Assembly: GCA_035694865.1 (NCBI GenBank) | Contig: DASSFC010000042.1 | Location: 1-46,014 of the forward strand | Direction of reading: 5' to 3' | Length of the DNA stretch: 46,014 bases | Source: Candidatus Saccharimonadales bacterium | Lineage (GTDB): Bacteria > Patescibacteriota > Saccharimonadia > Saccharimonadales > UBA10212 | Shown: positions 3,366-33,827 of the stretch, piece after piece | How the letters are laid out: the number at the start of each line of letters is the position of its first letter | Numbering within the stretch: position 1 is the first letter of the stretch | The notes under the pieces: model-generated | Seen by the model: the letters and a program-made list of their open reading frames with translations, nothing else | Database searches by the model: none | What the model was told of the DNA's origin: nothing | Position numbers and translations under genes: made by a program

Positions 3366-3506
3366 GATTATCATTATATCTTCAGTGGGCTTTAACCCCA
3401 AGCCGTGGAGCTCCGGCTTGGGGAGAAGCCAGAACAATGCAGGCCAAACTAAAAACGCGCCACTTGATTGCGTATCTTTCTAGCTCGGCTGTAATCTGTT
3501 TTGACG

Positions 3507-3581
3507 TGGTGCCCCCGAGAGGATTCGAACCTCTAGCTTCTCCTTAGGACGGAGCTATTTTATCCATTGAACTACAGGGGC
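3507..3581 (-). tRNA. tRNA-Arg (anticodon CCU), CCA encoded
   Basis: Reverse complement is GCCCCTGTAGTTCAATGGATAAAATAGCTCCGTCCTAAGGAGAAGCTAGAGGTTCGAATCCTCTCGGGGGCACCA. It has a 7-bp acceptor stem, a GTTCGAATC T-loop and an anticodon loop GTCCTAA. Confidence 0.9.
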
Positions 3582-3615
3582 TTACTTAAATATTACCTAA
3601 TTTCGGGTCTGTGCC

Positions 3616-4110
3616 CTATTGGGTAAGGTCTTGGTGGGCGGTTTTATAATCGAGAAGTTCTTCGGCTTTGAACCAGTGCATTATCTCGGCCTCGGCTTCA
3701 GCTTCGTCAGCCGAAGCGTGGATTAAGTTGGCTAGTCCCCCACCCTTTTGGTTGGCGTGTTTGATTGTCATGTGGGCGTAGTCGCCGCGGATAGTGCCCG
3801 GCGCGGCTGCGTGCGGTTCGGTTTCGCCGACCATTTTACGGACTGTAGCCACTGCTTCAACACCTTCTAGTACGGCGGCAATGACGGGTCCCATCATCAT
3901 AAAGTCGGCGTTGCGCCGGTAGACTTCTTCGCCGCGCCGGCTGATCAGCTGGCCGATGTTCTCATAATGATGGTGGTAATGAGATTCATCGGGCGCGACC
4001 ATCTTCAGGCCCACTATTTTCAGGCCTGCCCGTTCAAAACGGGTCAGTAATTCGCCGGTTATGCCGCGGGCCACGGCATCGGGCTTAAGAACAATCAAAG
4101 TTTTTTGCAT
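3616..4110 (-). CDS. ndk: nucleoside diphosphate kinase
   Basis: Start trimmed to MQKTLIVLKPDAVARG (ATG at 4110). NDK blocks are present, including GTIRGDYA and HASD. Confidence 0.9.
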   Translation of the reverse strand: MQKTLIVLKPDAVARGITGELLTRFERAGLKIVGLKMVAPDESHYHHHYENIGQLISRRGEEVYRRNADFMMMGPVIAAVLEGVEAVATVRKMVGETEPHAAAPGTIRGDYAHMTIKHANQKGGGLANLIHASADEAEAEAEIMHWFKAEELLDYKTAHQDLTQ

Positions 4111-4167
4111 TAAACCTATTTTAACAGATACGGTTAAGATAACAACTCGGCCAGCCTCTGTTAGAAT

Positions 4168-5091
4168 ATGGTTATGGATTACGAAAAAGCCGTCGCCGAT
4201 TTTTTGGAATATCTTGAACTCGAACAGAACCGTTCGCTCAAAACTATCCAAAACTACAGCCACTATCTAACCCGCCTGAGCGACTTTGCCGGCGACATCA
4301 AGCTGGCCGATATCGATACCGAGCTGGTCCGCAAATGGCGCCTATGGCTTAACCGCCTGCCGACCAACAATTCTGATGAGCTGTCTAAAATGACCCAGAA
4401 TTATCACCTGATTGCCCTGCGATCGTTTCTGCGTTTTTGCGCCAAACGCAATTGGGAGACTCTCCAGCCGGATAAAATCGAGCTGGCCCGCACCAAGCGG
4501 CCGCAGGTGACTTTTTTGACAGCCGACGAGCTGGAGAGGCTGACTAGCCAGCCGGATACTACCAAGCTTAATGGTTTACGCGACCGGGCGATTTTAGAAC
4601 TGCTTTTCTCTAGCGGACTGCGGGTTTCGGAGCTGGTCGGCCTTGACCGGGACCATGTTAATTTAAAGCGGCGCGAATTCATGGTCCGGGGCAAAGGCCA
4701 AAAAGACCGGCCGATTTTTATAAGCCCCGAGGCGGCCGACTGGATACAAAAATATCTGGATATGAGGACCGATAATACCAAACCGATGTTTATCCGATAC
4801 AGCGGCAACAAACAAATTGATAACAGCGGGAACTTTACGCGGCTGACCGCCCGCAGTATCCAGCGTATGGTCGGCCGCTACGCTAAACTGGCCGGCATCA
4901 CCAAACACGTCAGCCCTCACACCCTGCGCCACAGCTTCGCCACCGATTTATTGATGAACGGCGCCGATTTGCGCAGTGTGCAGGCCATGCTGGGCCATTC
5001 CAATATCGCCACGACCCAGATTTATACCCACGTCACTGACCCGCACCTAAAAGCGGTCCACGAAAAATTCCACGCCAAAAAACAGGCCTAA
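4168..5091 (+). CDS. xerC: tyrosine site-specific recombinase, XerC/XerD type
   Basis: N-terminal SAM-like core-binding region (FLEYLELEQNRSLKTIQNYSHYL). Catalytic C-terminus has RVSEL, HTLRHSFATDLL and LGHSNIATTQIYTHV. Confidence 0.88.
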   Translation: MVMDYEKAVADFLEYLELEQNRSLKTIQNYSHYLTRLSDFAGDIKLADIDTELVRKWRLWLNRLPTNNSDELSKMTQNYHLIALRSFLRFCAKRNWETLQPDKIELARTKRPQVTFLTADELERLTSQPDTTKLNGLRDRAILELLFSSGLRVSELVGLDRDHVNLKRREFMVRGKGQKDRPIFISPEAADWIQKYLDMRTDNTKPMFIRYSGNKQIDNSGNFTRLTARSIQRMVGRYAKLAGITKHVSPHTLRHSFATDLLMNGADLRSVQAMLGHSNIATTQIYTHVTDPHLKAVHEKFHAKKQA

Positions 5092-5099
5092 TGGCCCAG

Positions 5100-6263
5100 T
5101 TAGTGTCCGTTATTGGGACCGCCAACCACACCACCACCGCCGGCGGGCAAGGCGCAGGCCGGATCCGTTGTCTCATTTAGATGAGGTGCCCCATATTGAC
5201 CCTGGCCGGAAATATCGACAGTAAAGTTCTTACAGAGAGTTTCCATGGATTGGACAGCATAATTAGGCAGGCTGAACTGACTATTCAAATCAACCGTCGT
5301 CCGTAAACGCTGGATAATATCTGAGCCCTGCCCAGTAACGTCTACAATGGCTTGGGATTTAACAAAGTCGACAGTTTTATTACTGTTATCGGTGCCCTCG
5401 ACGCTTACTTTCAGTGGAGCGTATTGTGCTGTTAGGTAAAGATAGTAAGTATATGAGCTGTTTAGGTTCTTAACTTCGCTATTGCAGTAATGCGGGTCCT
5501 GATCCGGCGACGGCACCGGAATAGGCCGCGGATTCTTACAATTACCCGGTACAAAGTTGCCATTTGTCCCGCCTGGGCCACTGGCTACACTGTAACTGCC
5601 AGTAGTGTAGTCAGTTGTACCGGGAATGCCTGTGATACTACCGTTAGGATACAAGTAATACACCCGCAGGTTGCCAGATAATTGGCTGTCGCTAAAGGTA
5701 CCGCTTGGCGGTACGCCATAAATTCCTACCCTCAAGACTCCAGTTGCCCCCTTGCCGGCGGCGCTATCTTCAGGCGGTAAGCTGTTGCCGGCAGGTAACC
5801 ATTTGGTAGACGGTGATTGATTTTCCCAGGCAATGAAAAGGTTTTGTAGGTTAGCGGCGGACACTTTAAGTAACTGCGGCTCGCCGGGATAGACAGTTGC
5901 CTTTAGTACTTGCGGACTGGTATCGACGCTGATGCAGGAATATTTAGCTGCGCCAGCCCCCCCGGAAAGGTCTTGTGAAAAATATTGATTTCCATCGACA
6001 GGAGATGTAGGCCAGTTGGCACAGCCGCTAAAACCGGTGCCGCCAGCCACCAAATAAGCGATTGCGTCGTTGATACCCGACTGGGCAGCGTAATAAGCTT
6101 GGGTGGCTAATTCGCGGTCGGAAGCCTGGCGCAGCTCCCTGTCGGCCAACTTTGAGAAACCGATAGCTATCAAAGATAATGTGATAGTCAATATCGTCAC
6201 TACCAGGATCGAAACTATCCCCCGCTCGTTCTTATGCCACTTATTTGATATCAAACTGTCCAT
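5100..6263 (-). CDS. PilX-like minor pilin / pilus assembly protein
   Basis: N-terminus NERGIVSILVVTILTITLSLIAIGF followed by RELRQASDRELATQAYYAAQSGINDA, a PilX_N-like pattern. Located inside the pilin cluster. Confidence 0.6.
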   Translation of the reverse strand: MDSLISNKWHKNERGIVSILVVTILTITLSLIAIGFSKLADRELRQASDRELATQAYYAAQSGINDAIAYLVAGGTGFSGCANWPTSPVDGNQYFSQDLSGGAGAAKYSCISVDTSPQVLKATVYPGEPQLLKVSAANLQNLFIAWENQSPSTKWLPAGNSLPPEDSAAGKGATGVLRVGIYGVPPSGTFSDSQLSGNLRVYYLYPNGSITGIPGTTDYTTGSYSVASGPGGTNGNFVPGNCKNPRPIPVPSPDQDPHYCNSEVKNLNSSYTYYLYLTAQYAPLKVSVEGTDNSNKTVDFVKSQAIVDVTGQGSDIIQRLRTTVDLNSQFSLPNYAVQSMETLCKNFTVDISGQGQYGAPHLNETTDPACALPAGGGGVVGGPNNGH

Positions 6264-6268
6264 CTTTT

Positions 6269-6892
6269 TTAAGTGTTCTCCAATACAGTACTATCATAGT
6301 CCACTGTGGCGCAAAGGCTGGTATCGCTCAGACTGCCGGTGCACTGGGCATCCTTTGCCTGGTACGTTGGTGTAGTCGAGCCGGTAAATAAACCGTTCGA
6401 ACTGCCGCCGTAAAATACAACGTGTATATGCACATTACAGCGGCCGGATTGACAAGCAGTGGGCGAGCTATAATCGGTTATATCGTTAAGCTGCATACCG
6501 GAGTCAAGCATATGTACGCAGCCGGAACCACAAGGAAGGATATTAGCAGGTACGCAGTTTCCGCCATTATTATCGCGCTCGATACCAGGGTTACTACCAT
6601 TGACTTGAGTGCCAAGCTGATACAGATAACGATGAATGCCAATGCAAAAACCTCCTGAAGTAGGTTGGGGGCCCCCTCTAGTGAACTGGATATCATCGGA
6701 GATACTTTGTACTACGTTACGAGCATCTTCCTGGGTCTTACTCATACTGACACCCTTATAAAACAAGTCGCCAGTCCGGATAAAAGCAGCCAGCATGACA
6801 ATCAACAGCAATGAAAATATCAAGGTCGCTATTAGCAGCTCGATGATGGTAAAACCTGTTTGTGTGTTGTGGTCAGCAGCTCTACGACGCAT
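6269..6892 (-). CDS. type IV minor pilin (prepilin-type N-terminal cleavage/methylation domain)
   Basis: MRRRAADHNTQTG/FTIIELLIATLIFSLLLIVML with Glu at +5. Overlaps the upstream pilin gene by 11 nt. Confidence 0.8.
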   Translation of the reverse strand: MRRRAADHNTQTGFTIIELLIATLIFSLLLIVMLAAFIRTGDLFYKGVSMSKTQEDARNVVQSISDDIQFTRGGPQPTSGGFCIGIHRYLYQLGTQVNGSNPGIERDNNGGNCVPANILPCGSGCVHMLDSGMQLNDITDYSSPTACQSGRCNVHIHVVFYGGSSNGLFTGSTTPTYQAKDAQCTGSLSDTSLCATVDYDSTVLENT

Positions 6893-16894: not shown

Positions 16895-19579
16895 TTAAAA
16901 TACTGGTGGTAAGCTGAACAGGCCTTCGGGTGTAGGTGATTGCGGGCTAAAGGCCGGTGCGCCCAAGACCATTGATGGCACAAAGTTGAATATTTCGGCT
17001 GGTGCGTTGCCAATCCCATTTATATCTGTTCCGAGGGACTGGCTGCTGCCGTGGGCCCTCAATAACTCGACATGTTGGGCGATAACCGCACCATTCACTA
17101 TCAGCTGGTGCGGGCATTGGCTGTCACAAGTATTAAAGATACCACCGCTGGCTGTACTGCCAACGACAGTCGGCTGGGCAATATAAAGGCCATCCAGCTC
17201 TGTAACGCCATCTGTCAGCGTAATATTGCCTTTTACAATCAGGCTAAAGTACGGAATATCGGCTCTGATGTTTGGATCGTATGGCTGTTGGTAGACGATA
17301 TTAGTAGATATATTGATGTCGCTAGGTACGTACACCGTAATTTGGACTCCGTGTGGTATAGATACCTGAGAGCCAGAAATATCAGTGCCGTTCCAAATAT
17401 ACTGGCAGCGCCGTTCATTATTACCGTTTGGCAGACAGTTTTGGACTGCCGAATTCAGATCATTTGTCTTAGCTGTATTGGCCGGGGTATTAATCATCGT
17501 TTTGCTGTAAAAATCAGTCGCGCAATGGTTTGCGCTGGGACCCGTCGAATTAAAGTAGCCGCTTATGCCTCCTCCTATAGTCACGCCGCTATTGGCAAAG
17601 AGCGTGTTGTGGGGCGAAATAAAGCTTTCGCCGCTTGGGTTGGGTATCAGGCCTAATGCCACGGCGCCGAAATCTGTCTTAGAGTGGTATGCATTGTTGT
17701 TCGCTCGAATCCCGCCGTAATATTTGGCATTCGCTTGACCGGCGGCGTTGGCCGTATAAGGGTTTTGGTAGGCCGAGTACGCGCCCGGGCAGCTATCACC
17801 AATCTTAAAGGCGCCGCCGCCTGCCGCGTCATTCTGCCAAACCTGGAAATACGGTGCAACCACTGGAGATGAGGTTCCTGAACATGTTGTAGCAGGACTG
17901 CCGCCTGGGTCAGTTATGGTTACGTTGTAAGTACCGGTATAGTCTAAGTGCCCGCTAAAGTAGATTATTTTCGAGAAACTGCCAGGATTATTAGGTATGG
18001 TCACTGTTTGGGGGTTGGGGTTAGGTCCAGTTACATACGCACCCGGGCTGGCCGACATTTGGGCGCTGAAGTTGCCTCCGATTCCGGTGCCGTTAGCTTT
18101 GACATTGACGGTGTACAAATTATTTACGGTTTGACCTGGCGCTACGCCAGCCTGCGCTCCAACTGTACATGTGACAGTAACTATTGGCGCCACATTATAG
18201 GTAACTTTGCAAGTAATACCCGTACCGAAAGGCGATTTCAGTGGCGGATCACGACTGTAAATTTCATATGTATAGATAGCTTGAGTTGTTCCCGGTGGTG
18301 GATGTACGGTATCGGTATAAGGGTTACTGCCGGTCAGTGAGACATAATTAGGCTCACTTACTCCACCGGTAGCGTTAATATCATTTGAGCCAATTCTTTT
18401 TATATAGTATCCGCCGACCGTATCGTCAGGTACCCAGTTAACTGGTTCTTTGATCCCTATCCCTCTTATTGTGACATTAAAATTCTGATTCACCGGTATA
18501 GTTGCTTGATCTTGAGGTACAAAATTATCGCACTTTACATCACAGTAATTTTGCTCAGTTGCTTTAGCGTCAAATTGATCAAATGGCAACCTTATTTGAA
18601 TCGTATTAGGATAATTGGAGCCTATAATTTTTAACTTGTACACATAATTATCTTTATAATTGCCGTAGTTTAGTGTACCTGTCGTACCGGAAGCACCCCA
18701 TGTTCCGCCTTGTACAGTTTGGGCGTTCCATGATGCAACTTGCGACCAATTTAATGGATAGCCTGGTGATGCGTCCATGGTCGCGTGCATATTCTGCTGA
18801 TAGATTCCATTATCTGCGTCATAAATCTTGATGGGTGGCAAGTTTGAAGTATCTTGAAAGCATGCCGGGGCGAACTCTACCTCAGCGCTCCAGTTATTCC
18901 CGCTTGGCTTATATATCGTACTGTACTGGTAGACTTGGTTTTTTAGTCCGACTGCCCATTCAGGACTAGCCAGTCCAACGTATGCGTTGCTATCTGTGGC
19001 TGCGACCCTAAAATACCGCTCATTGCTGCCCGGGATTGGAGTTATTTCTGCAGAAAATGCAAAGACGCGATAGGCCTGATGTCCAAGGACTGTAGAAGGT
19101 ATGCCCGCCCAGCTAGGAATGTTAAATTGCACAGGATTAGTACCGCAGCTTGGACCGCTTGACTTCGGGCCCAAAAATACAGCGTTACCAGGGTTTCCGC
19201 TTCCGGTTGCCGAATCATATTCCTGATCAGTTAAGCTTTCTACGAAGTAAGTTACCGTTGGAGAGCCAACGTCGGCTGAACAGACCTGGTTGACATTAAT
19301 GGTTGTTGCATCGCCTACAGGTAAATAGATTTTATACCACATGTATTGCCCATTAAATTTTCCGTCTCCTACACCGGTCAATGGCGTAAAATTATTTCCG
19401 CTGCCATCAGTCCCGGAATTAGCGAGAGGCGCCGAAGAGTCTATTGGTATATTTGTATCTGCCCGAGCTGTACCGGAGTGTACTAATAAAAATACGAGGG
19501 ATAAAAAACAAGCCAATATTATAGTTAGCGTTGTTTTTCGCGCTAACTTCAGTGGGTAAAATAAAGAGCTCGTTGCCAT
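16895..19579 (-). CDS. 894-aa secreted protein of unknown family, directly upstream of pilM (candidate pilus-associated adhesin)
   Basis: Start trimmed to the ATG at 19579 (MATSSLFYPLKLARKTTLTIILACFLSLVFLLVHSGTARA/DT, signal-peptide-like). The track start at 19693 would overlap the upstream gene. Composition is Gly/Asn/Thr/Pro-rich and looks beta-rich. I recognise no catalytic motif. Confidence 0.75.
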   Translation of the reverse strand: MATSSLFYPLKLARKTTLTIILACFLSLVFLLVHSGTARADTNIPIDSSAPLANSGTDGSGNNFTPLTGVGDGKFNGQYMWYKIYLPVGDATTINVNQVCSADVGSPTVTYFVESLTDQEYDSATGSGNPGNAVFLGPKSSGPSCGTNPVQFNIPSWAGIPSTVLGHQAYRVFAFSAEITPIPGSNERYFRVAATDSNAYVGLASPEWAVGLKNQVYQYSTIYKPSGNNWSAEVEFAPACFQDTSNLPPIKIYDADNGIYQQNMHATMDASPGYPLNWSQVASWNAQTVQGGTWGASGTTGTLNYGNYKDNYVYKLKIIGSNYPNTIQIRLPFDQFDAKATEQNYCDVKCDNFVPQDQATIPVNQNFNVTIRGIGIKEPVNWVPDDTVGGYYIKRIGSNDINATGGVSEPNYVSLTGSNPYTDTVHPPPGTTQAIYTYEIYSRDPPLKSPFGTGITCKVTYNVAPIVTVTCTVGAQAGVAPGQTVNNLYTVNVKANGTGIGGNFSAQMSASPGAYVTGPNPNPQTVTIPNNPGSFSKIIYFSGHLDYTGTYNVTITDPGGSPATTCSGTSSPVVAPYFQVWQNDAAGGGAFKIGDSCPGAYSAYQNPYTANAAGQANAKYYGGIRANNNAYHSKTDFGAVALGLIPNPSGESFISPHNTLFANSGVTIGGGISGYFNSTGPSANHCATDFYSKTMINTPANTAKTNDLNSAVQNCLPNGNNERRCQYIWNGTDISGSQVSIPHGVQITVYVPSDINISTNIVYQQPYDPNIRADIPYFSLIVKGNITLTDGVTELDGLYIAQPTVVGSTASGGIFNTCDSQCPHQLIVNGAVIAQHVELLRAHGSSQSLGTDINGIGNAPAEIFNFVPSMVLGAPAFSPQSPTPEGLFSLPPVF

Positions 19580-19583
19580 ATGG

Positions 19584-20054
19584 TTAGTTAGTGTTGGCAT
19601 CTTTTTCAAAAAGTGCAGCTGTCTTTGCGTCGCCTTCTTGCTGGAACTTTTTAGCAGCCAAAAGTGCATATTTTTTACGATTCTGTGTATCACCTTTTTG
19701 CTTATATAAGTACCAGTAGCTTTGATATGTGGCTGAGGTAATCTTATCTGATGGGACCTTAGCGACTATTTCGTTAAGTACCCTTTCCGCGTTGGCATAT
19801 TCTTTAACCACAATGTATTCATTGGCTACGGTAGTTTGAGTAGTCTGATACGATTCGTAATCTTTAGTATTTAAAAAATTTTGGGCTGTTTGAGAAGTAC
19901 GTTGTTCTAATGGTGTCTCACGATTGCTGGTCTTATGGTGCTGCTGATATAGGACAACTCCAATTACGATCAATACAATCAAAGCACCGCTAACTAAGAG
20001 CTTTCGCCTTGTCAGCCTCAAGGCTCCACCGCTTGGATTGTTTATATTTGGCAT
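19584..20054 (-). CDS. 156-aa membrane-anchored protein with a TPR-like helical C-terminus
   Basis: Start trimmed to the ATG at 20054 (MPNINNPSGG...). TM helix LLVSGALIVLIVIGVVLY. The C-terminus has helical-repeat character (YQSYWYLYKQKGD, KKYALLAAKKFQQEGDAKTAA). The track extension would cross a terminator. Confidence 0.6.
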   Translation of the reverse strand: MPNINNPSGGALRLTRRKLLVSGALIVLIVIGVVLYQQHHKTSNRETPLEQRTSQTAQNFLNTKDYESYQTTQTTVANEYIVVKEYANAERVLNEIVAKVPSDKITSATYQSYWYLYKQKGDTQNRKKYALLAAKKFQQEGDAKTAALFEKDANTN

Positions 20055-20179: not shown

Positions 20180-20713
20180 TCAACCATGGCACTGGAAGTC
20201 CGGCTGACTGGCCGCGATGATGCACATCGTGGACCGCATGGTTTCCCAGTACGGGACTCCCTTTTTCTCCCCCTTCAGCCGCTTGTAGAAGCTTGTGAGG
20301 TTATCGATCCTGTAGTTTCCAGATTCCTGCACCATTGGCGCCTGGACCTGAAAGGTTCGCTTGATAGTTCGTCCCCGCTTTAGTACCCGGAAATTGTGCT
20401 TGTAGATGCAGTTGACGCCGTCGTAGCTGACCCCACTAAAGCAGACCTGGGTGTAGCGCAGTGTCTTCTTTGCCTTGAACACATACGTCAGGGAAGTTGC
20501 TTCACCGGCGTTTACCTGCCAAGGGTCCACGGTCACGGTTGTGCATGCCCAGGACCTCGGGTCGTATTTGCTGACGCGGGCATGGCACATGAAACTTGTG
20601 TACACCTTCTGGGTAGAGGAGGTGCGCGTAGCACTCCCCGCCCCGGCTGGAATGGCCAGCGAGCCGGCCACTGCCAGCACCCCCACGGTCGCGAGGATGC
20701 TTTTGCGATTCAT
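20180..20713 (-). CDS. 177-aa secreted Cys-containing protein, unknown family, in a GC-rich island
   Basis: Signal peptide MNRKSILATVGVLAVAGSLAIPAGAGSA. SD GGGGGTG lies upstream of the ATG. Codons are GC3-rich (AAG, CTG, GTG, ACC), unlike the neighbouring genes. Confidence 0.7.
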   Translation of the reverse strand: MNRKSILATVGVLAVAGSLAIPAGAGSATRTSSTQKVYTSFMCHARVSKYDPRSWACTTVTVDPWQVNAGEATSLTYVFKAKKTLRYTQVCFSGVSYDGVNCIYKHNFRVLKRGRTIKRTFQVQAPMVQESGNYRIDNLTSFYKRLKGEKKGVPYWETMRSTMCIIAASQPDFQCHG

Positions 20714-20895: not shown

Positions 20896-23526
20896 ATGCT
20901 TAACCAAAAGAGGCTCTTTACTCTGCTGGGTGGTGCGCTGATAGCGTTGTTGCTGGCTGTCTTCTGGACGATAAAAATCAGCAATGCCGATTGGGGTTCA
21001 ACTTGGCCCTCCGGCACAAACCTGAATCTCCAAAAGCAAGCTGATTTATCATCCGTTCCCCGCTCAATTAATGGCAACGTAGACTGTTTCCCAGAGCCGC
21101 AAGATGTCTGCGCCGTCTCTACCGGCTATGGCACTGCCAACACGACTGGCGCCGTCAGCCTGGGCGGCCCAGACGAATACCATCCAGTTATCAGTAATGT
21201 CGATAGCCGGCAGCATTTTATTCCAGTCCCAAACTCCAGTGAATTTATAACCTACACCACTGACCCCGCTATCGGCTCATACCTTTACTTTAACTACAGC
21301 TTTTTAGGTTCGGTGAAGCCGGTCGACCAGGGCTTAGGGCCGTTTTTTAAAGTCGTTAGTTCTCCGGATGGAGTCTTGGCCGACAAAAATGGCCAAAAGC
21401 TGGCGGCCGATTATAGCTCCATGAGCTTTTCAGAAAATGGTGAGTGGCTGGTAGTTTCTGAACCGAACGTGGCAATGCTTAGAGTTAACTTACAAACTTT
21501 TGATGTGCTGCCCTTTGCCCCAAGCGCGAATTATTTAATAGGCCTGAGCCCTGCTTTTAAAACGGCGGTAACCAACGACGGCCGCTTCGCGGCCGTCGCA
21601 TCCAAAAACAACAGTTACTTCAGGCTCTACGACTTAGCTACCTGCACCCAGGTTCCAGAATCAATCGCCGGGCCGGTTAATTGCCAATACCGTGATTTAC
21701 AAAACTTCACACAACAGACCATAAACGGTTTTGATGGAGTAACTAACCTCCGGTTTATTGATGATAGTGCACTTAGTTTTTATGCGGCCTACACCCAATC
21801 TACAGAACATAAAATCGCCAAGTACGTCCTAAGCAGTGGTAACGGCACAATAAACCAGCAGGACTATTTAGCACTGGGCGATTCATATATTTCGGGCGAG
21901 GGCGCCTTTCATTACCTGCCTGGCACAGACACGACCGATAATCAGTGCCATGTTTCAGGTATATCTTATCCTCTGCTGAGCGGGCAGCAGCTTAACTACA
22001 ATTCATTTCATTCGGTTGCCTGCTCCGGCGCCCAGACCAAAGACTTAGTCGATGCCTCTAAAACTTATACCGGGCAGGCCAGGCCGTTCGCCAGGAGGGA
22101 TACTTTAGATAACCAAAATCAAACGGCTGGTATATTGTCCAACTTCCAGCCCGGATACATCGACCAGCTAGATTTTATTAAACGCTACCAGCCAAAAGTC
22201 GTCACAGTTTCGATAGGCGGCAATGATATCGGCTTCAGCGACCGGCTGCGCCAGTGCCTTGGCCTGCAAACTTGCTATAAAACATATGAGGACCGCCTCG
22301 AATTCGTCCGCGAAGTAAACAGAGCCTTCCCCAAACTGGTAAATGCTTACTCCAAGATTAAAAGCCAGGGCGCGGGCAATGCCAGAGTTTATATAATCGG
22401 ATACCCGCAGATTGCTTACATCGATGGCGACTGTGCAGTAAATGTTCATATGAATCACGACGAGCTGGTCTTCGCTCAACAAGCTATCGACTATCTAGAT
22501 TCTGTAGTCAAAGCCGCCTCCAACCGGGCTGGCGTGTTCTATGTCGATACCCAGGACGCCTTTTACGGACACCGTTTGTGTGAAGCAAGTGAAGGCTCAG
22601 TCGCCGTTAACGGCTTAACCGCCGGTAATGATTTTCCGGATAAATTCGGCGGCCCAGTTGGACGTGAAAGCTATCATCCAAATGATTTCGGTCATCTGCT
22701 ACTCGAAAATAAGATTTTACAAATAACACACAACCTGACCGACCCAATGGCAGAGCCCGACCTTCTTTCAGGCCCGCCATCCGAAACGGGCTTATCAATC
22801 CTATCCGCGCCGCAATCTGGACGAGATGTTAAACAAACCCAATATGACTCCGGCCTGGTGCCGGACTTAGTCTATAAAAATGTCCCCGTGGATTTAAATT
22901 TACATACTTCAGACCATGGCATAGAACCACTCGCCAACATAAGCGGAGAAGTTCATTCCAAGCCAACCGTGCTGGGCTACTTTATTGCTGGCGATGGAAG
23001 CCTCAAGACGACGATAACAATTCCTTCGGAAGTTCCCAGTGGGTTTCATACTTTGCATCTGTTAGGCATAAACCTTATGGGTCAATCAGTAGACATCTTT
23101 AAAGTCATCTATGTGGCAGAAAGCCGTGATGATTTAGAGGGTAATGGCACTGTAGACAGCAGTCAGCAATGTGTACTGGTTGAGCCAGTCGGCCAAGATT
23201 TTGACCAAGATGGCATAGACGATGCCTGTGACGGGCAGATTTCTTTGCCGCCGACTGGCCCAGGCCAGTCGGCGGCCCTAGCCGGTCAGGTCTCATCCTT
23301 AACGCCTGGCCTGGCCGTCCTCACCACAACCCAATCTCCGCCCGAACCACAAAGCCAAATTACTTTTACAGCCCGCTCACAGGCCGTTCCGCTAAAGGTC
23401 TTAGCAGCAAGTACTACCAAACCCTTAAGACGCCCTCTAGATCAAAACCTCAGGCTTTCGCCAAAACCGTTTATCTACGGCTTTGGAATTTTACTGGTAA
23501 TAAGTTTCGCGCTCAGCATGGTTTAG
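20896..23526 (+). CDS. 876-aa surface protein with a central SGNH/GDSL hydrolase domain
   Basis: Signal peptide or anchor LFTLLGGALIALLLAVFW. SGNH blocks are LALGDSYISGEG (I), VACSGAQT (II), VSIGGNDIGF (III) and YHPNDFGH (V). There is a calcium-binding TSP3-like DFDQDGIDDACD and a C-terminal TM helix FIYGFGILLVISFALSMV. Confidence 0.85.
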   Translation: MLNQKRLFTLLGGALIALLLAVFWTIKISNADWGSTWPSGTNLNLQKQADLSSVPRSINGNVDCFPEPQDVCAVSTGYGTANTTGAVSLGGPDEYHPVISNVDSRQHFIPVPNSSEFITYTTDPAIGSYLYFNYSFLGSVKPVDQGLGPFFKVVSSPDGVLADKNGQKLAADYSSMSFSENGEWLVVSEPNVAMLRVNLQTFDVLPFAPSANYLIGLSPAFKTAVTNDGRFAAVASKNNSYFRLYDLATCTQVPESIAGPVNCQYRDLQNFTQQTINGFDGVTNLRFIDDSALSFYAAYTQSTEHKIAKYVLSSGNGTINQQDYLALGDSYISGEGAFHYLPGTDTTDNQCHVSGISYPLLSGQQLNYNSFHSVACSGAQTKDLVDASKTYTGQARPFARRDTLDNQNQTAGILSNFQPGYIDQLDFIKRYQPKVVTVSIGGNDIGFSDRLRQCLGLQTCYKTYEDRLEFVREVNRAFPKLVNAYSKIKSQGAGNARVYIIGYPQIAYIDGDCAVNVHMNHDELVFAQQAIDYLDSVVKAASNRAGVFYVDTQDAFYGHRLCEASEGSVAVNGLTAGNDFPDKFGGPVGRESYHPNDFGHLLLENKILQITHNLTDPMAEPDLLSGPPSETGLSILSAPQSGRDVKQTQYDSGLVPDLVYKNVPVDLNLHTSDHGIEPLANISGEVHSKPTVLGYFIAGDGSLKTTITIPSEVPSGFHTLHLLGINLMGQSVDIFKVIYVAESRDDLEGNGTVDSSQQCVLVEPVGQDFDQDGIDDACDGQISLPPTGPGQSAALAGQVSSLTPGLAVLTTTQSPPEPQSQITFTARSQAVPLKVLAASTTKPLRRPLDQNLRLSPKPFIYGFGILLVISFALSMV

Positions 23527-24245
23527 CTATGCTTAATCGCCATTCGCTCTATGTAGACTATTCCTACTAAAGCCTCGGCCGGCGAGCCATTAGGATAATT
23601 TACGCTAACTACTCCTTCGGAAATCGGTATTTCGTTTGGCATAGTAGCTAGCTGATGGCCTAAATCAACTTCATCGAAATCATCCGGCTCTTCCACAAAT
23701 TCGGGCATAGCCGTTTCATGGAAACGGATATCCTCAGCAGCAGGCACCCAGTCGTCTAAAGATTCGACGTCACCTCCCTCTGTCGACTCCCAGCGGTGGG
23801 CTAATCTTCCGGACACGGAAATCTGTCCTAGTTCTATCGCAGCGTCAGGTTCTTTCAAATTAGGACTGTGCTCCTGGCCGCGATGACTATAGGCTTCGAT
23901 AAGCTGATTCTTATCAAACAAGCCGATTGCTGGCACGCCCTTGTGTAAATAACGCTCGGCATAGACGCCGGGGTTGTTGCGGTGAACAATATCAGTAAAA
24001 GTATTCTCCCAACCGGCTAAGTTCATACCGTATATCCCTTTGACGGGCGCCATTTTCCTGTTCTTTTTGAACGGCGTGCCGTCCATGCCGCTAAAAACTA
24101 GGGCTTTAGGGTCTAAATTATTTTCAATTAGCAGGCCCAGGAACTGATTTAAAAACTCTTCGTCTTCAACAGCTATATCTTCTTCGACTTTGAAGTGGAG
24201 GCGTTCGATTTTTTTTGGTTTTTGTTTTTCGTGCCTTGCTGGCAT
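23523..24245 (-). CDS. 240-aa acidic hypothetical protein
   Basis: Long ORF with a consensus-like promoter: TTGACT at 24284-24279 and TGCTAATAT with its -10 at 24261-24256. Only 10 nt separate the -10 from the ATG, so it is probably leaderless. No family recognised. Confidence 0.65.
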   Translation of the reverse strand: MPARHEKQKPKKIERLHFKVEEDIAVEDEEFLNQFLGLLIENNLDPKALVFSGMDGTPFKKNRKMAPVKGIYGMNLAGWENTFTDIVHRNNPGVYAERYLHKGVPAIGLFDKNQLIEAYSHRGQEHSPNLKEPDAAIELGQISVSGRLAHRWESTEGGDVESLDDWVPAAEDIRFHETAMPEFVEEPDDFDEVDLGHQLATMPNEIPISEGVVSVNYPNGSPAEALVGIVYIERMAIKHS

Positions 24246-24306
24246 AACAGATACAATATTAGCATAAAAAGTCTAAAAAGTCAACACCTGGGTGGGAATA
24301 CATATT

Positions 24307-24333
24307 AAAAAGCGCCCTGCTCTTACAAGGCGC
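24307..24333 (-). terminator. intrinsic terminator of the four-gene GC-rich operon
   Basis: The minus strand reads GCGCCT-TGTAAGAGCA-GGGCGC followed by TTTTTAATATG. Confidence 0.6.
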
Positions 24334-24365
24334 GGTGCCTGGGCCTGCCATTGCCAGCCCAGGTC

Positions 24366-24602
24366 TTAATCTAGAGGAGGTTTCCAGGCCATCAGGATGT
24401 GCGCGAGAACTCGTCGCCAGCGGGGTGTCTTGCCCATGCCCAGCCCCTTCTTCATTCGCTCGTGTCCGCGGTGGAACATGTAGCGGGCCCAAAGGCTCCT
24501 GAACCGCCTGTAATACTTCACAGTGCTCGGCAGCACCCACGCAAGCAGTACCAGGGCGCTGAACTGAACTATCTCTAGCCATCTAGGCCCTAGGTGATGC
24601 AT
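24366..24602 (-). CDS. 78-aa small membrane protein (one TM helix plus an Arg/Lys-rich tail), gene 4 of the GC-rich operon
   Basis: Its ATG overlaps the stop of the upstream ORF (TGATG). TM helix LEIVQFSALVLLAWVLPSTV. Confidence 0.5.
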   Translation of the reverse strand: MHHLGPRWLEIVQFSALVLLAWVLPSTVKYYRRFRSLWARYMFHRGHERMKKGLGMGKTPRWRRVLAHILMAWKPPLD

Positions 24603-24853
24603 CAGCCGACCAGGGCGCGCCGAACTTCGTAGCCATGGCTGCGAAAGATGTCAAGCACACCGTCGGGCTCGGCGCCGGGGTCCAGGTCGATGATGTAGCT
24701 GACTTCGCCGAAATTGACCAGGACGATACCTTCGGGAAAATGGTCAAGTTCCCGGTTCAGCTTCTCGTTTTCCTCCGGCGGCTTGCCTTTACGCCAACTC
24801 ACGATATGGGTCGTGGAGTCGTCGTCTTGCAGGATGTCGATCTGTGTTTCCAT
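24602..24853 (-). CDS. 83-aa acidic small protein, gene 3 of the GC-rich operon
   Basis: SD GAAGGAG lies 5 nt upstream of the ATG at 24853. No family recognised. Confidence 0.6.
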   Translation of the reverse strand: METQIDILQDDDSTTHIVSWRKGKPPEENEKLNRELDHFPEGIVLVNFGEVSYIIDLDPGAEPDGVLDIFRSHGYEVRRALVG

Positions 24854-24868
24854 TCCCGCTCCTTCCGG

Positions 24869-25027
24869 TCAGCGCTTTTTGCGGCGCTTGGTTCGCTTGG
24901 GCTTCTTGGGAGCCAGGTGATCCTGAGGACCAGTCCCAGCTTGGCCGGGCTTTTTGGAAAACCCAGCCAGCTTGGCCTTCTCGTCCCGCACCATTTTCCG
25001 GGTGTCATTTTGCCAGTTTCTCGGCAT
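24869..25027 (-). CDS. 52-aa highly basic small protein, gene 2 of the GC-rich operon (not in the ORF track)
   Basis: My own translation is MPRNWQNDTRKMVRDEKAKLAGFSKKPGQAGTGPQDHLAPKKPKRTKRRKKR. SD AAGGAG lies 7 nt upstream of the ATG at 25027. It fills the gap between genes 1 and 3. Confidence 0.5.
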   Translation of the reverse strand: MPRNWQNDTRKMVRDEKAKLAGFSKKPGQAGTGPQDHLAPKKPKRTKRRKKR

Positions 25028-25042
25028 CCCGTTACTCCTTGG

Positions 25043-25252
25043 CTAGATGTGACGCGGCGATTCCACGGGGATGGCCTGGTGGTCCACTTTTCTGGCATCA
25101 AGCCAGCGAGGCTCGCCGAATTCGATGAAACTGCCATTGGCGCGCTTTACTGGCCTTACCTGTATGAGGCTGCCGTTCCGGGTGTAGGCCTTTACGACGA
25201 CCTCCCGTCTTTGGAAGTGGATGATGCTACCGGGGCTGAACTTGCGTTCCAT
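25043..25252 (-). CDS. 69-aa small protein, gene 1 of the GC-rich operon
   Basis: SD GAGGAG lies about 7 nt upstream of the ATG at 25252. The sequence looks beta-rich (SIIHFQRREVVVKAYTRNGSLIQVRPV). Confidence 0.55.
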   Translation of the reverse strand: MERKFSPGSIIHFQRREVVVKAYTRNGSLIQVRPVKRANGSFIEFGEPRWLDARKVDHQAIPVESPRHI

Positions 25253-25322
25253 TTTTTACTCCTCAAATTGGAAAGGGCGAGCCTTGGCCCGCCCAGATGG
25301 CAAACCAAAACTAGTTAGCAAT

Positions 25323-25351
25323 ATTTTACAATATAATGACCAATATAGCAA
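25323..25351 (-). promoter_or_regulatory. near-consensus promoter TTGCTA-17-TAAAAT driving the GC-rich operon
   Basis: Minus strand: TTGCTA at 25351-25346 and TAAAAT at 25328-25323. A leader hairpin GGGCGGGCCAAGGCTCGCCC (25294-25275) lies between the promoter and the first SD. Confidence 0.45.
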
Positions 25352-25362
25352 CAGAGGTGGCG

Positions 25363-26409
25363 CTATTTTAGGACAGTGTTGTCGGGATGGTGGGCGCTGG
25401 TTGCCGCCGGCGCCGGCTGGGTTCGGCGTCGGGATACTTCCGCCGCCATTATGGCGCCGGCGCCGGCAACCATATAAAGCCCGCCAAAGAACCAGTAGTT
25501 TTTATCAATCTGCCGGGTTACGTCATTAACAACCTTGCTCAAGTCCACACTCACCCCGCTGCCGGTCACGTTAAGCTTGGTGGCTACATCTCTACTTATA
25601 ACCCTGGGTAAAAAGAAAGATAAAGCCAGCATCAGCACACCGATTACCACTAAATTAATGCCTATGTGGCGCAGGCCGGCCTGCCAGGTCCGGCTCAGAA
25701 AAACTACACCCAGACCGCATAGAATAGTCAGGACGGCAAAAATCCAAGGAGTTTTTTTGGCCAGCTGATACTTGCCTGGCAGTTTTTGGACACTTGGGTT
25801 ATTAAAAACCGATTGGCCATTTTGGCCTTTTAGGTTGGCCGCGCTGATATTAGCCCCTCTTAAAAAATTACTGTTGCTTAAATCGCGCTGGACCTGCGAA
25901 GCGACGGCTTGGGCGGATACGCCCAGCGGCAGACAAACAGCGTTAAGAACGGTGAAGCTCTGTATCTGAGCCAAGCTCCTACAGGCTGGCAAACCGGCCA
26001 GCTGCTGCTGAAGCGAGTTGGCGGCGTTTTTAGCGAACTGGTCATTCTGGGCACTGAGGTCGATATTAAAGTCCGGCCGGGCGATTTGGCCGTTCAACCA
26101 CTGGTAGATGTTTTCTATAGCCGCATTGCCCTGCTGCTGGACATATTGAGGCGTAATCGCCTGGTTAGCCGCCTGTTGGACTAGGGGATTGTTGGCATCA
26201 ATCGTTCCTACACTTGTATTAATTGTCTTAAGCTGCCCCAGGGCATTAGTCACGACGGTGTTATAAACTCCGCTATCGGCGGCTATCTTCTTGACCGTAG
26301 CCGGATTGGTAGCCGTGCGCACGAAGCCAACATCAAATGCTGTCGCAAACAGTAAAAATACGAACAGCGAACTTACTAGAGCCAAACAGAGCCTCCGCAG
26401 GACATTCAT
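25363..26409 (-). CDS. 348-aa membrane protein, unknown family
   Basis: N-terminal TM helix (LCLALVSSLFVFLLFATAF), a large external domain and three C-terminal TM helices. An extended -10 TGCTAGAAT (26425-26417) ends 7 nt from the ATG, so it is probably leaderless. Confidence 0.7.
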   Translation of the reverse strand: MNVLRRLCLALVSSLFVFLLFATAFDVGFVRTATNPATVKKIAADSGVYNTVVTNALGQLKTINTSVGTIDANNPLVQQAANQAITPQYVQQQGNAAIENIYQWLNGQIARPDFNIDLSAQNDQFAKNAANSLQQQLAGLPACRSLAQIQSFTVLNAVCLPLGVSAQAVASQVQRDLSNSNFLRGANISAANLKGQNGQSVFNNPSVQKLPGKYQLAKKTPWIFAVLTILCGLGVVFLSRTWQAGLRHIGINLVVIGVLMLALSFFLPRVISRDVATKLNVTGSGVSVDLSKVVNDVTRQIDKNYWFFGGLYMVAGAGAIMAAEVSRRRTQPAPAATSAHHPDNTVLK

Positions 26410-26575
26410 AATCAGTATTCTAGCAGAACTGGGGTATAATTACCCCTGTACTTGTACAGTTTCGCGGAATTCCGCAGTGCAGTATTTCGCGAAACTGAGA
26501 GGAGGAGGCGAGCCGAGGCTGAAAGTAAGTTTAAGAACCTTTAACTTACGGAAGCCGGTGCCTCGACTCCGACGA

Positions 26576-26663
26576 GGAGGGGTGCAGGAGTGGTTGAACT
26601 GGCTTGTCTCGAAAACAAGTATGCCGCAAGGTATCGAGGGTTCGAATCCCTCCCCCTCCGCCA
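26576..26663 (+). tRNA. tRNA-Ser (anticodon CGA), long variable arm, CCA encoded
   Basis: GGAGGGGTGCAGGAGTGGTTGAACTGGCTTGTCTCGAAAACAAGTATGCCGCAAGGTATCGAGGGTTCGAATCCCTCCCCCTCCGCCA. The anticodon loop is CTCGAAA. Confidence 0.9.
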
Positions 26664-33458: not shown

Positions 33459-33498
33459 GGGGCTCGGGGTGATGTGGTGCAAGCACACCCCGAGCCCC
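33459..33498 (+). terminator. perfect 13-bp GC hairpin GGGGCTCGGGGTG-N14-CACCCCGAGCCCC; likely terminator shared by convergent murE and the minus-strand unit
   Basis: Stem arms at 33459-33471 and 33486-33498. TTGTTCATCCTT follows on the plus strand. Confidence 0.4.
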
Positions 33499-33671
33499 TT
33501 GTTCATCCTTCGTATTCGGGTTTCCCTAATCGGCAGTCTCTTAACGCACGTTCTTTACATGCCGAAGCATGTTGACTTGCCGTTCGGGCCGCGGTGCAGG
33601 CCTGCGGGCCTGCCTTCGTGCCCGCCGCTCGCGCAGCGGATCAACGAAGTTCCACGGAGATGGAGAGCGGA

Positions 33672-33827
33672 TCACCTCCTCGGCCGACAGGTCGCCGAGC
33701 TGACATGCTTCAGCCGGCATTGCACGTGGGGAAGCTTCCTCACCCCCTCACTGCATCCCACAACGAACCGAGCGCCCGGAATATCACGAGCGATCAGTCG
33801 GACCTGACCAGCGGTGATCGTGACCAT
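33672..33827 (-). CDS. 51-aa Arg-rich small ORF in a very GC-rich island, unknown function
   Basis: Start trimmed to the ATG at 33827, which is preceded by the SD AAGGAGG (33843-33837). Translation: MVTITAGQVRLIARDIPGARFVVGCSEGVRKLPHVQCRLKHVSSATCRPRR. The palindrome GTGACC-GAAT-GGTCAC (33835-33820) covers the start codon. Confidence 0.4.
   Translation of the reverse strand: MVTITAGQVRLIARDIPGARFVVGCSEGVRKLPHVQCRLKHVSSATCRPRR

Follow-up and report, generated by a model that had tools for sequence, protein, structure and literature searches.

Phage morons, as defined for lambdoid phages, are autonomous units made of a promoter, a gene and a terminator, which lie between conserved genes and stand out by their atypical composition. 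In the type V toxin-antitoxin system GhoS-GhoT, a soluble small protein is encoded upstream of a small membrane toxin. The genomes of Patescibacteria are tiny, many of their genes (a large share) lack a known function, and both their strain variation and their dealings with hosts and phages are poorly understood; among them, the Saccharimonadales are ultra-small episymbiotic bacteria. We have followed up a cassette of four small genes (g1 to g4) on the minus strand of a stretch of 46,014 nucleotides (nt) from Candidatus Saccharimonadales bacterium (positions 1 to 46,014 of contig DASSFC010000042.1, assembly GCA_035694865.1), which is referred to in its full length as the window. A preliminary description made from the sequence alone had proposed for this locus a tightly coupled operon of unrecognisable small proteins, a set of foreign composition resembling the cargo of mobile elements.

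As in a phage moron, the cassette has its own promoter and terminator and a composition unlike that of its surroundings (z-scores of 2.6 for GC content, 1.9-2.7 for GC at third codon positions or GC3, and 3.4 for tetranucleotides), it can be dispensed with and varies among close relatives, and its small genes lack an obvious core function. Unlike a moron, it sits in the chromosome without a surrounding prophage, comprises four genes instead of one, has no phage homologs and keeps its ends conserved around different cargo, which is not a defining feature of morons. The earlier likening to morons was apt for the architecture (own promoter and terminator, exchangeability), whereas no phage or plasmid evidence accompanies it. 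A second parallel is found in flexible genomic islets such as capsule and O-antigen loci or metagenomic islands, with which the cassette shares conserved flanks, unalignable but functionally analogous alleles, a mosaic identity and a naturally competent organism group (PMC10633639). It differs from them in its tiny scale (about 0.5-1.7 kb), in the presence of the same-ended unit at more than one chromosomal site, and in anchors that are its own promoter/leader, internal genes and terminator hairpin instead of housekeeping genes. With type II and type V toxin-antitoxin modules, the g3-g4 pair shares the gene order, a one-base overlap, opposite charges, a downstream membrane helix and replacement as a block, but g3 and g4 belong to no toxin or antitoxin family or fold and the partner is not kept in a sister allele. 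Integron cassettes are also short exchangeable units that end in an imperfect hairpin recurring behind different cargo, but the units described here have their own promoter and are single, not arrayed, with no attC core and no integrase in the window. Altogether, the locus would represent a class of cassettes of small open reading frames (ORFs), found here only in Saccharimonadales and matched to no described family, that is apparently undescribed.

Mosaic alleles and shared ends

The cassette occurs in the same place in sister lineages represented by the comparison loci L001/L004 (two independent assemblies), L005 and the identical L002/L003. Between the window and L001/L004, the flanking gene of 348 amino acids (aa) shows 88% nt identity and a synonymous divergence (dS) of 0.47, whereas the promoter, leader, g1 and g2 keep 95-100% identity per 60 nt, with 97-99% and dS values of 0.07 and 0 within g1 and g2, respectively. 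Blastn identity stops at position 24859 and resumes at 24378, and the stretch in between (24858-24379) is unalignable; what L001/L004 hold in its place is an ORF of 37 aa, whose coding status is uncertain, together with a diverged homolog of g4, and the replacement junctions are the same in the two assemblies. Further on, the segment 24378-24213, which comprises the last four g4 codons, both 3' hairpins and the next promoter, is 87% identical; the 240-aa gene that follows (23523-24245, minus strand) is hypervariable between strains, with 36% aa identity to its L001 counterpart, and the GDSL-lipase gene beyond it returns to 81% nt identity. In L005 the pattern is a different one, as g1 and the g2 tail have diverged further than the flank, with only about 3 differences in 85 aligned positions of the promoter/leader (3 mismatches over 121 nt in the leader comparison) next to genes with dS values of 0.5-0.8. 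Segments exchanged repeatedly by homologous recombination would leave such a patchwork of identities, which is unlike the outcome of vertical divergence or of a single insertion. The block of g3 and g4 has been replaced between strains in which g1 and g2 are near-identical, which offers direct evidence of cassette-style allelic replacement in an uncultured soil lineage of Saccharimonadales.

Short ORFs with a Cys-x-(F/L)-G-W-H-(D/K)-Y motif were noticed in L001 (1663-1776), L005 (1597-1685) and L012 (1947-2105). Those of L001 and L005 are 75% identical in aa and the one of L012 is a weak match (E 3.5e-4, in a small database), their coding status being uncertain, with about 3 synonymous vs 7 non-synonymous changes. 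A resemblance of the 37-aa 'GWHDY' ORF of L001/L005 to DUF1660 was discarded, as neither Pfam nor PHROGs supported it and the one similarity is the weak one to the ORF of L012.

Homologs of g3 have all been found in Saccharimonadales-type contigs, either heading or inside other operons of tiny orphan genes, and the g3 family spans 7 lineages with members that include L007, L011, L012, L013/L039 and L014. The alignment of the upstream regions of these units with the leader of the window yielded a shared promoter/leader, with the motif TTG[CT]TA-N14-T[TGA][GA]-TAAA[AG]T, preceded by (A)CC(T/C)CTG and followed 7-13 nt later by a TTYYGG box, a hairpin ending in GCTC..TTT and GAGGAG. Positions 25351-25253 of the window fit this pattern in full (motif, TTYYGG, hairpin with U-run and GAGGAG), and RNAalifold detected no common fold among nine leaders. 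Throughout the 293 kb compared, the strict motif is present only at such units, L040 aside, which had been retrieved with a form of the motif itself; it does not occur in the remaining 280 kb or so, and 20 shuffled sets gave 0 matches. It precedes the units of the window, L001/4, L007/9/10, L011, L012, L014, L039, L042 and L045, and L047 shows a variant of the -10 box. Once the motif was fixed, a scan of a genome collection gave, among the matches listed, one in Saccharimonadales, L042, which adjoins a thioredoxin-like gene as predicted, together with three in unrelated taxa, about what chance would give by a rough estimate of our own; retrieval through the thioredoxin-like protein, also done with the motif already fixed, gave L045 with the motif and L047 with the -10 variant.

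The 3' end of the unit is shared as well. Hairpin 1 of the window is identical at 32 of 33 nt to the end of the unit in L047, another Saccharibacteria metagenome-assembled genome (E 7e-11), and the units of L001, L014 and L039/L013 close with related hairpins of the form CCTGGGC..GCCCAGGCA, behind each of which comes a second GC hairpin, with one unrelated match elsewhere in the 293 kb. Positions 24363-24305 of the window conform to this arrangement (hairpin, second GC hairpin and T-run), and in L001 and L047 the second hairpin keeps the place but has a different stem sequence. A specific promoter/leader combined with a specific terminal hairpin thus provides a searchable signature for a hypervariable small-protein locus.

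At least 10-12 units were recognised in this way, and what they carry between their ends differs widely. In order and in aa, the window unit encodes 69, 52 (polybasic), g3 and 78 (transmembrane, TM); that of L039, 93, 38 (basic), a g3-family protein and 76; that of L007, a g3-family protein, 55 and 82 (Cys-rich); that of L014, a g3-family protein, 48 (Cys-rich) and three TM proteins; that of L011, a g3-family protein, 61 and 72 (TM with an Arg-rich tail); that of L042, 35, 76 (weakly MazE-like, E 0.15), 36 (TM) and 64 (TM); that of L045, 52, 70 (TM), 32 (polybasic) and 67 (TM); and that of L047, 40 (TM) and 65 (TM with an Arg-rich tail). The Cys-rich peptides of L007 and L014 are homologous (E 9e-10), and small membrane peptides are found in the units of L011, L012, L014, L042, L045 and L047. 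Peptides of other units that look like g2 or g4 were considered as their homologs, a possibility that shuffle tests did not support, the likeness being one of architecture alone. In sum, these comparisons show, for several lineages and for more than a single place in the chromosome, units that keep their ends conserved while the cargo differs. The locus behaves as exchangeable accessory DNA, with half of the unit replaced in sister strains and the ends recurring around other cargo at another locus, which supports in part the mobile-cargo reading of the preliminary description.

The sites themselves bring in the main rival explanation, which holds that the units form a non-mobile, lineage-specific regulon of small stress- or nucleotide-pool-responsive proteins, with ends bound by a dedicated regulator or RNA-processing factor and cargo differences due to the ordinary fast evolution of small genes. 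Six units (L007, L011, L039, L042, L045 and L047) are transcribed divergently from a thioredoxin-like gene, and on contigs long enough to show it (L007/L008, L012, L042) nrdJ is found beside this slot, together with nrdR in L012; moreover, the leader is more conserved than synonymous sites, and hairpin 1 is conserved in sequence and not just in structure. A near-palindrome, CA(T/A)TATATTG, in the promoter spacers of the window (25329-25345, minus strand) and of L005 may resemble the core of an NrdR box. Nevertheless, the L014 unit lies between murJ and an ABC-transporter gene, and the window unit is at neither type of site, the window being devoid of nrd and thioredoxin-like genes. The cargo sets are also largely non-homologous between units, and g1 and g2 are far closer between strains than their flank, whereas g3 and g4 were replaced outright instead of diverging gradually. 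A small regulon, possibly tied to the nrd/thioredoxin locus, would explain the conservation of the leader, but would leave both the mosaic of identities and the second site unexplained, and we regard it as rather improbable.

Four orphan proteins and their possible roles

All four small ORFs appear to be real genes, g3 by virtue of its distant homologs and confident fold model (see below). The ratio of non-synonymous to synonymous divergence (dN/dS) against L005 is 0.23 for g1 and 0.36 for g2, compared with 0.12-0.17 for the flanking 348-aa gene, and GC3 lies well above GC at second codon positions (GC2) in the minus-strand frames. In g2, residues 1-24 are identical between the window and L005 despite 5 synonymous changes, while L001 differs at two of them. 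The g4 homolog of L001/L004 keeps 41% protein identity (BLASTP E 2e-12; shuffle z 17) within DNA that cannot be aligned, which fits constraint at the protein level. GC-rich DNA nevertheless yields long ORFs in several frames, and the small ORFs could in principle be spurious, with the real gene being a 227-aa ORF of the plus strand (24635-25318), or none at all. One annotation pipeline did call an antisense ORF of 83 aa over g1 in L001 (1219-1470), leaving the g4 homolog (1851-2108) without any call. The 227-aa ORF, however, is broken by stops in L001, L004 and L005, has a dN/dS of 1.6 in its frame, is absent from a collection of 15 billion proteins and matches no family in Pfam or PHROGs, in contrast to the purifying selection, the homologs and the GC3 excess of the minus-strand frames. 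Homology and dN/dS tests reject the plus-strand ORF in favour of the four minus-strand ones, as had been proposed, and we consider the spurious-ORF explanation barely conceivable. In the databases, g4 of this contig is recorded only by the Logan gene calls and not by NCBI.

The g1 product is basic (isoelectric point, pI, 10.9), and its AlphaFold2 (AF2) model, with a mean predicted local distance difference test score (pLDDT) of 86, predicts an SH3-like barrel of five strands with a C-terminal helix. Its homologs are confined to sister strains, with 94% and 72% identity; the best Foldseek matches are KOW, Tudor and ribosomal-type barrels that do not reach significance (E >= 0.036), and a search of PDB sequences returned just a non-significant, repeat-summed match to a WD40 design. 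The g2 product (pI 11.7) combines an invariant N-terminal stretch of 24 residues, a variable linker rich in P, G and Q and a polybasic tail, KKPKRTKRRKKR, with no match in Pfam, PHROGs or the PDB sequence search. The g3 product is acidic (pI 4.5), with a predicted beta-beta-alpha-beta-beta-alpha-beta topology (alignment-based AF2 model, pLDDT 84, predicted template-modelling score 0.75), and it looks like a cytosolic-type globular protein. Among 1.84 billion representative sequences, five distant homologs of the same length were found (33-45% identity, E 1.6e-10 to 5.6e-5), and the family alignment has seven invariant residues (W20, G23, P26, N29, G49, G74 and Y75). Foldseek gave only a generic ferredoxin/HMA-like likeness in the PDB (E >= 0.06) and uncharacterised viral proteins in BFVD (E >= 5e-3). 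For both g1 and g3, likenesses of this generic and non-significant kind led to no inference. We take g3 to be a member of a small new protein family, seen only in Saccharimonadales, with a confident predicted fold. Finally, the g4 product (pI 11.7) has one predicted N-terminal helix, hydrophobic and spanning approximately residues 10-28, and behind it a tail rich in Arg and Lys.

None of the four products gave a significant match in Pfam, PHROGs, NCBIfam or PADLOC, nor in the PDB sequence searches. Word-index searches of 5.8 billion protein clusters added one g1 homolog and none for g3 or g4, and scans of JGI metagenomes and genomes with g1 or g2 gave no relatives, the search for g2 homologs consisting of degenerate-pattern scans of JGI metagenomes and IMG/VR. 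That the products could be placed in no known family, as stated in the preliminary description, still holds after all these searches and Foldseek, and by this measure g1 to g4 are genuine lineage-restricted orphans.

With these elements, the reading that we favour can be put together. Members of the cassette class share the promoter/leader and the first 3' hairpin, and their cargo is a shuffled set of genes for tiny orphan products, in which the g3 family occurs alongside polybasic peptides, Cys-rich peptides and basic-tailed peptides that cross the membrane once. Strains would swap this cargo through homologous recombination, with the conserved ends and conserved internal genes as anchors, which is plausible because Saccharibacteria have been shown to be naturally competent (PMC10633639), a capacity that probably helps the exchange. 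An exchange of this kind would account for the mosaic of identities and, in part, for the atypical composition. As for the products, g4 may be an effector that acts on membranes, and the acidic g3, whose translation would be coupled to that of g4 and immediately precede it, may be its cognate partner or neutraliser, so that both would make up a toxin/immunity-like or exclusion-like pair diversifying between strains; g1, with its SH3-like barrel, and g2, with its polybasic tail, may form a conserved module of accessory or regulatory proteins that bind nucleic acids or ribosomes. What makes this more than an ordinary cluster of hypothetical genes is the conservation and specificity of the ends, along with the cassette-style exchange.

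A narrower proposal makes g3-g4 a true toxin-antitoxin or abortive-infection module, with the antitoxin first, a membrane-depolarising toxin second, and g1 and g2 as mere passengers. The two genes are neighbours with a one-base overlap, their products are oppositely charged (pI 4.5 and 11.7), g4 combines a membrane helix with a basic tail, strains differ by replacement of the whole pair as a block, and in one sister unit, L042, a weak MazE/AbrB-like ORF is followed by two membrane peptides. The MazE/AbrB assignment of that ORF was nonetheless rejected, since the match lies below threshold (E 0.15). Neither g3 nor g4 matched PADLOC, Pfam, NCBIfam or the PDB. No GhoS-like structure was among the 50 best Foldseek PDB matches listed for g3, none of which is significant, and no protein named GhoS appeared at E <= 10 in profile or single-sequence PDB searches. 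Moreover, members of the g3 family often precede non-membrane proteins (L007, L013), and L001 keeps a g4 homolog without g3. As no recognised toxin or antitoxin family or fold was matched, the toxin-antitoxin or abortive-infection suggestion made earlier remains conjecture, and we find it improbable.

Several points weigh against the favoured reading. No defence, toxin, antitoxin or immunity family was matched in Pfam, PHROGs, NCBIfam or PADLOC; the g3 slot of L001 is filled by the non-homologous 37-aa ORF, whose coding status is uncertain, so that a strict g3-g4 partnership is not conserved; and the g2-like and g4-like peptides of sister units are not demonstrably homologous to g2 and g4. The conserved ends could reflect a shared regulator instead of mobility, the motif was derived from some of the sequences that it marks, with few independent confirmations (L042, L045 and partly L047), and the comparators are mostly short metagenome contigs. 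Furthermore, the excess of GC that amounts to +0.04 to +0.09 in the units of the window, L001, L014, L039 and L042 is about 0 in those of L007, L011, L012, L045 and L047; as about half of the units show none, excess GC was discarded as their universal mark.

Taking all this together, we are fairly confident of the anatomy and evolutionary behaviour of the unit, doubtful about the functional part, and evenly divided on the reading as a whole, that is, on a recombination-shuffled accessory cassette with the functions proposed above. A broader idea, which we put forward tentatively as one possibility, is that Saccharimonadales possess miniature exchangeable cassettes of a kind not described before, whose ends act as portable recombination anchors, regulatory handles or both, so that naturally competent cells could swap their cargo (membrane peptides, polybasic peptides and the g3 family) within and between sites as a shufflable arsenal against phages, competitors or the host. 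If the ends are such handles, they would be an entry point to strain-specific effector and immunity genes, and might offer a native site of expression or insertion for the existing genetic tools of Saccharibacteria; if they are not, the locus would stand as a well-documented operon of apparently real orphan small genes, partly missed by standard annotation.

Layout and composition of the unit

Positions 24305-25358 of the minus strand read as one autonomous transcription unit, from a promoter of the sigma-70 type through four coupled small genes to two tandem hairpins, the second being an intrinsic terminator (Table 1). The tightly coupled operon of the preliminary description was borne out, with its four ORFs at the right coordinates and lengths (69/52/83/78 aa) and every listed feature in place; a scan found the promoter-like TTGCTA-17-TAAAAT and the terminator, and the leader hairpin at 25275-25294 was recovered by folding. 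The leader folds with -25.3 kcal/mol (z -1.8), and a search of the whole unit against Rfam gave no match.

Table 1. Features of the four-gene unit and its strain-variable block, in window coordinates (SD, Shine-Dalgarno sequence)
Feature	Position	Strand	Description
Upstream of -35		-	conserved CACCTCTG precedes TTGCTA
Promoter	25323..25358	-	-35 TTGCTA 25351-25346; 17-nt spacer ending TTG; -10 TAAAAT 25328-25323 (scan)
5' leader	25253..25322	-	70 nt; TTTTGG box, 8-bp GC hairpin, U-rich run, SD GAGGAG
TTTTGG box	25310-25305	-	in 5' leader
Leader hairpin	25294-25275	-	8-bp GC stem GGGCGGGC-CAAG-GCTCGCCC
g1	25252-25043	-	69 aa; SD GAGGAG at 25264-25259
g2	25027-24869	-	52 aa; SD AAGGAG; C-terminal end KKPKRTKRRKKR
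g3	24853-24602	-	83 aa; SD GGAAGGAG
g4	24602-24366	-	78 aa; ATG uses the A of the g3 TGA (TGATG, one-base overlap)
3' hairpin 1	24338..24363	-	CCTGGGCTGGC-AATG-GCAGGCCCAGG
3' hairpin 2 and T-run (intrinsic terminator)	24305..24333	-	stem 24333-24312; 9 pairs, 6 G-C, then TTTTT (scan)
Strain-variable block (g3 and nearly all of g4)	24379..24858	-	blastn of L001/L004 vs window

The GC content of 24300-25355 is 56.3% vs 49.8% for the window (z 2.6), a value reached by 0.8% of equal-sized segments, and that of the four ORFs is 57.5-57.9%; the 1-kb segment with the highest GC of the whole sequence (24411-25466, 57.8%) overlaps the cassette. GC3 of the four genes is 0.68-0.73, compared with 0.561 +/- 0.063 in 41 other genes (z 1.9-2.7), and is equalled by only one other gene of the window. 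The tetranucleotide distance of the cassette is the maximum of the window (z 3.4, top 0.4%). The deviation is real, beyond chance and the strongest of the window, but moderate, and the GC3 and tetranucleotide statistics sustain the foreign-looking composition noted earlier. The composition jump described then was based on exact 60-nt counts (0.60, 0.633 and 0.35), but its size was overstated because the 35% stretch is merely the AT-rich intergenic promoter of the next gene.

Other compositional outliers of the window lie away from the cassette. The one other gene with so high a GC3 (0.74, the highest of the window; 57% GC) encodes 177 aa with a signal-peptide-like N-terminus (20180-20713, minus strand). 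A 61% GC stretch between a 455-aa gene and groES (33469-33807) contains a dubious ORF only and has no Rfam match, permissive thresholds included. Positions 17700-18200, inside a 932-aa gene (16895-19693) by a type IV pilus operon, nearly equal the cassette as a tetranucleotide outlier.

Chromosomal site and origin

The cassette lies between the 240-aa gene and the region of the 348-aa membrane-protein gene (25363-26663). These neighbours, described earlier as ordinary, proved otherwise: neither has a Pfam family, and the hypervariable 240-aa gene has no PHROG family either. In at least 11 more distant Saccharimonadales loci (L006, L015-L019, L025, L026, L031, L032 and L036), a convergent gene for a 120-aa membrane protein lies about 40 bp beyond the 348-aa ortholog, a neighbour that the lineage of the window lacks, and none of the distant loci with the ortholog carries g1-g4. 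The junction comparison suggested earlier thus placed the cassette in all three of the close lineages and a different neighbour in the distant ones, so that its presence at this site is specific to the lineage of the window. Lineages in which the dS of the flanking gene is about 0.5 also have it at this site; it is older than the split of the three sister lineages, and is not a recent insertion peculiar to this genome. Other single ORFs are inserted after the 348-aa gene in L022, L023/24 and L028, so the junction seems to be a recurrent variable spot.

An origin as a moron of a phage, or as what is left of a prophage or other mobile element integrated near the tRNA-Ser gene, would account for the own promoter and terminator, for the atypical composition and for the tRNA-Ser(CGA) gene that lies 1.2 kb away. 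However, the cassette is on the 5' side of this tRNA, and the tRNA-Ser/348-aa synteny is ancestral in Saccharimonadales, with the tRNA-Ser preceding the 348-aa ortholog in both loci checked for it (L006, L015). The ORF map of the window holds chromosomal genes, including the pilus operon, groES/EL and ValRS, with no evident ORF of the integrase type, and no convincing direct or inverted repeats flank the cassette as ends of a transposon or island. No PHROG of known function was matched by the operon or its two flanking genes, the 348-aa protein giving only weak PHROG matches (E >= 0.037). Blastn of the cassette DNA against 50,697 phage records and 72,556 plasmid records, tblastn of g1, g3 and g4 against the same phage records, and scans of IMG/VR with g1, g2, g3, one g3 homolog and the hairpin gave no relatives. 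We therefore see a phage or mobile-element origin as quite unlikely. A tRNA-associated genomic island was rejected on the same integrase, repeat, tRNA-side and synteny observations. Three further candidates were also set aside: an integron cassette, as the hairpin at 24363-24338 has no RYYYAAC/GTTRRRY cores, the ORF map shows no integrase and the unit has its own promoter; a holin/lysis cassette, as g4 has a helix and a basic tail but no endolysin or holin family was matched in or beside the unit; and a class II bacteriocin-immunity locus, as g1-g4 show no double-glycine leader, none of the adjacent genes is a transporter gene, and g3 is an acidic globular protein of the cytosolic type.

Acquisition from a GC-rich actinobacterial host of the episymbiont is the remaining origin to be weighed, and GC and GC3 above those of the surrounding genome would agree with it. 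Nevertheless, 58% GC is well below typical actinobacterial values, the promoter/leader is common to other Saccharimonadales units, and the 5.8 billion clusters (g1, g3, g4) and 1.84 billion representatives (g3) contained relatives in a Saccharimonadales context only. As all relatives are in Saccharimonadales-like contigs, neither an actinobacterial nor a phage donor is supported, and the former seems to us very unlikely. In this respect the mobile-element donor of the preliminary description did not find support, as neither the phage and plasmid searches nor those of the protein clusters and representatives gave relatives outside a Saccharimonadales context.

A larger GC-rich island was observed in L014, between murJ and the ABC-transporter gene. 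It extends over 2.7 kb (3476-6352), with 58-65% GC in a genome of 48-50% GC, and contains a g3-family unit followed by a gene for a 343-aa orphan protein without a family match.

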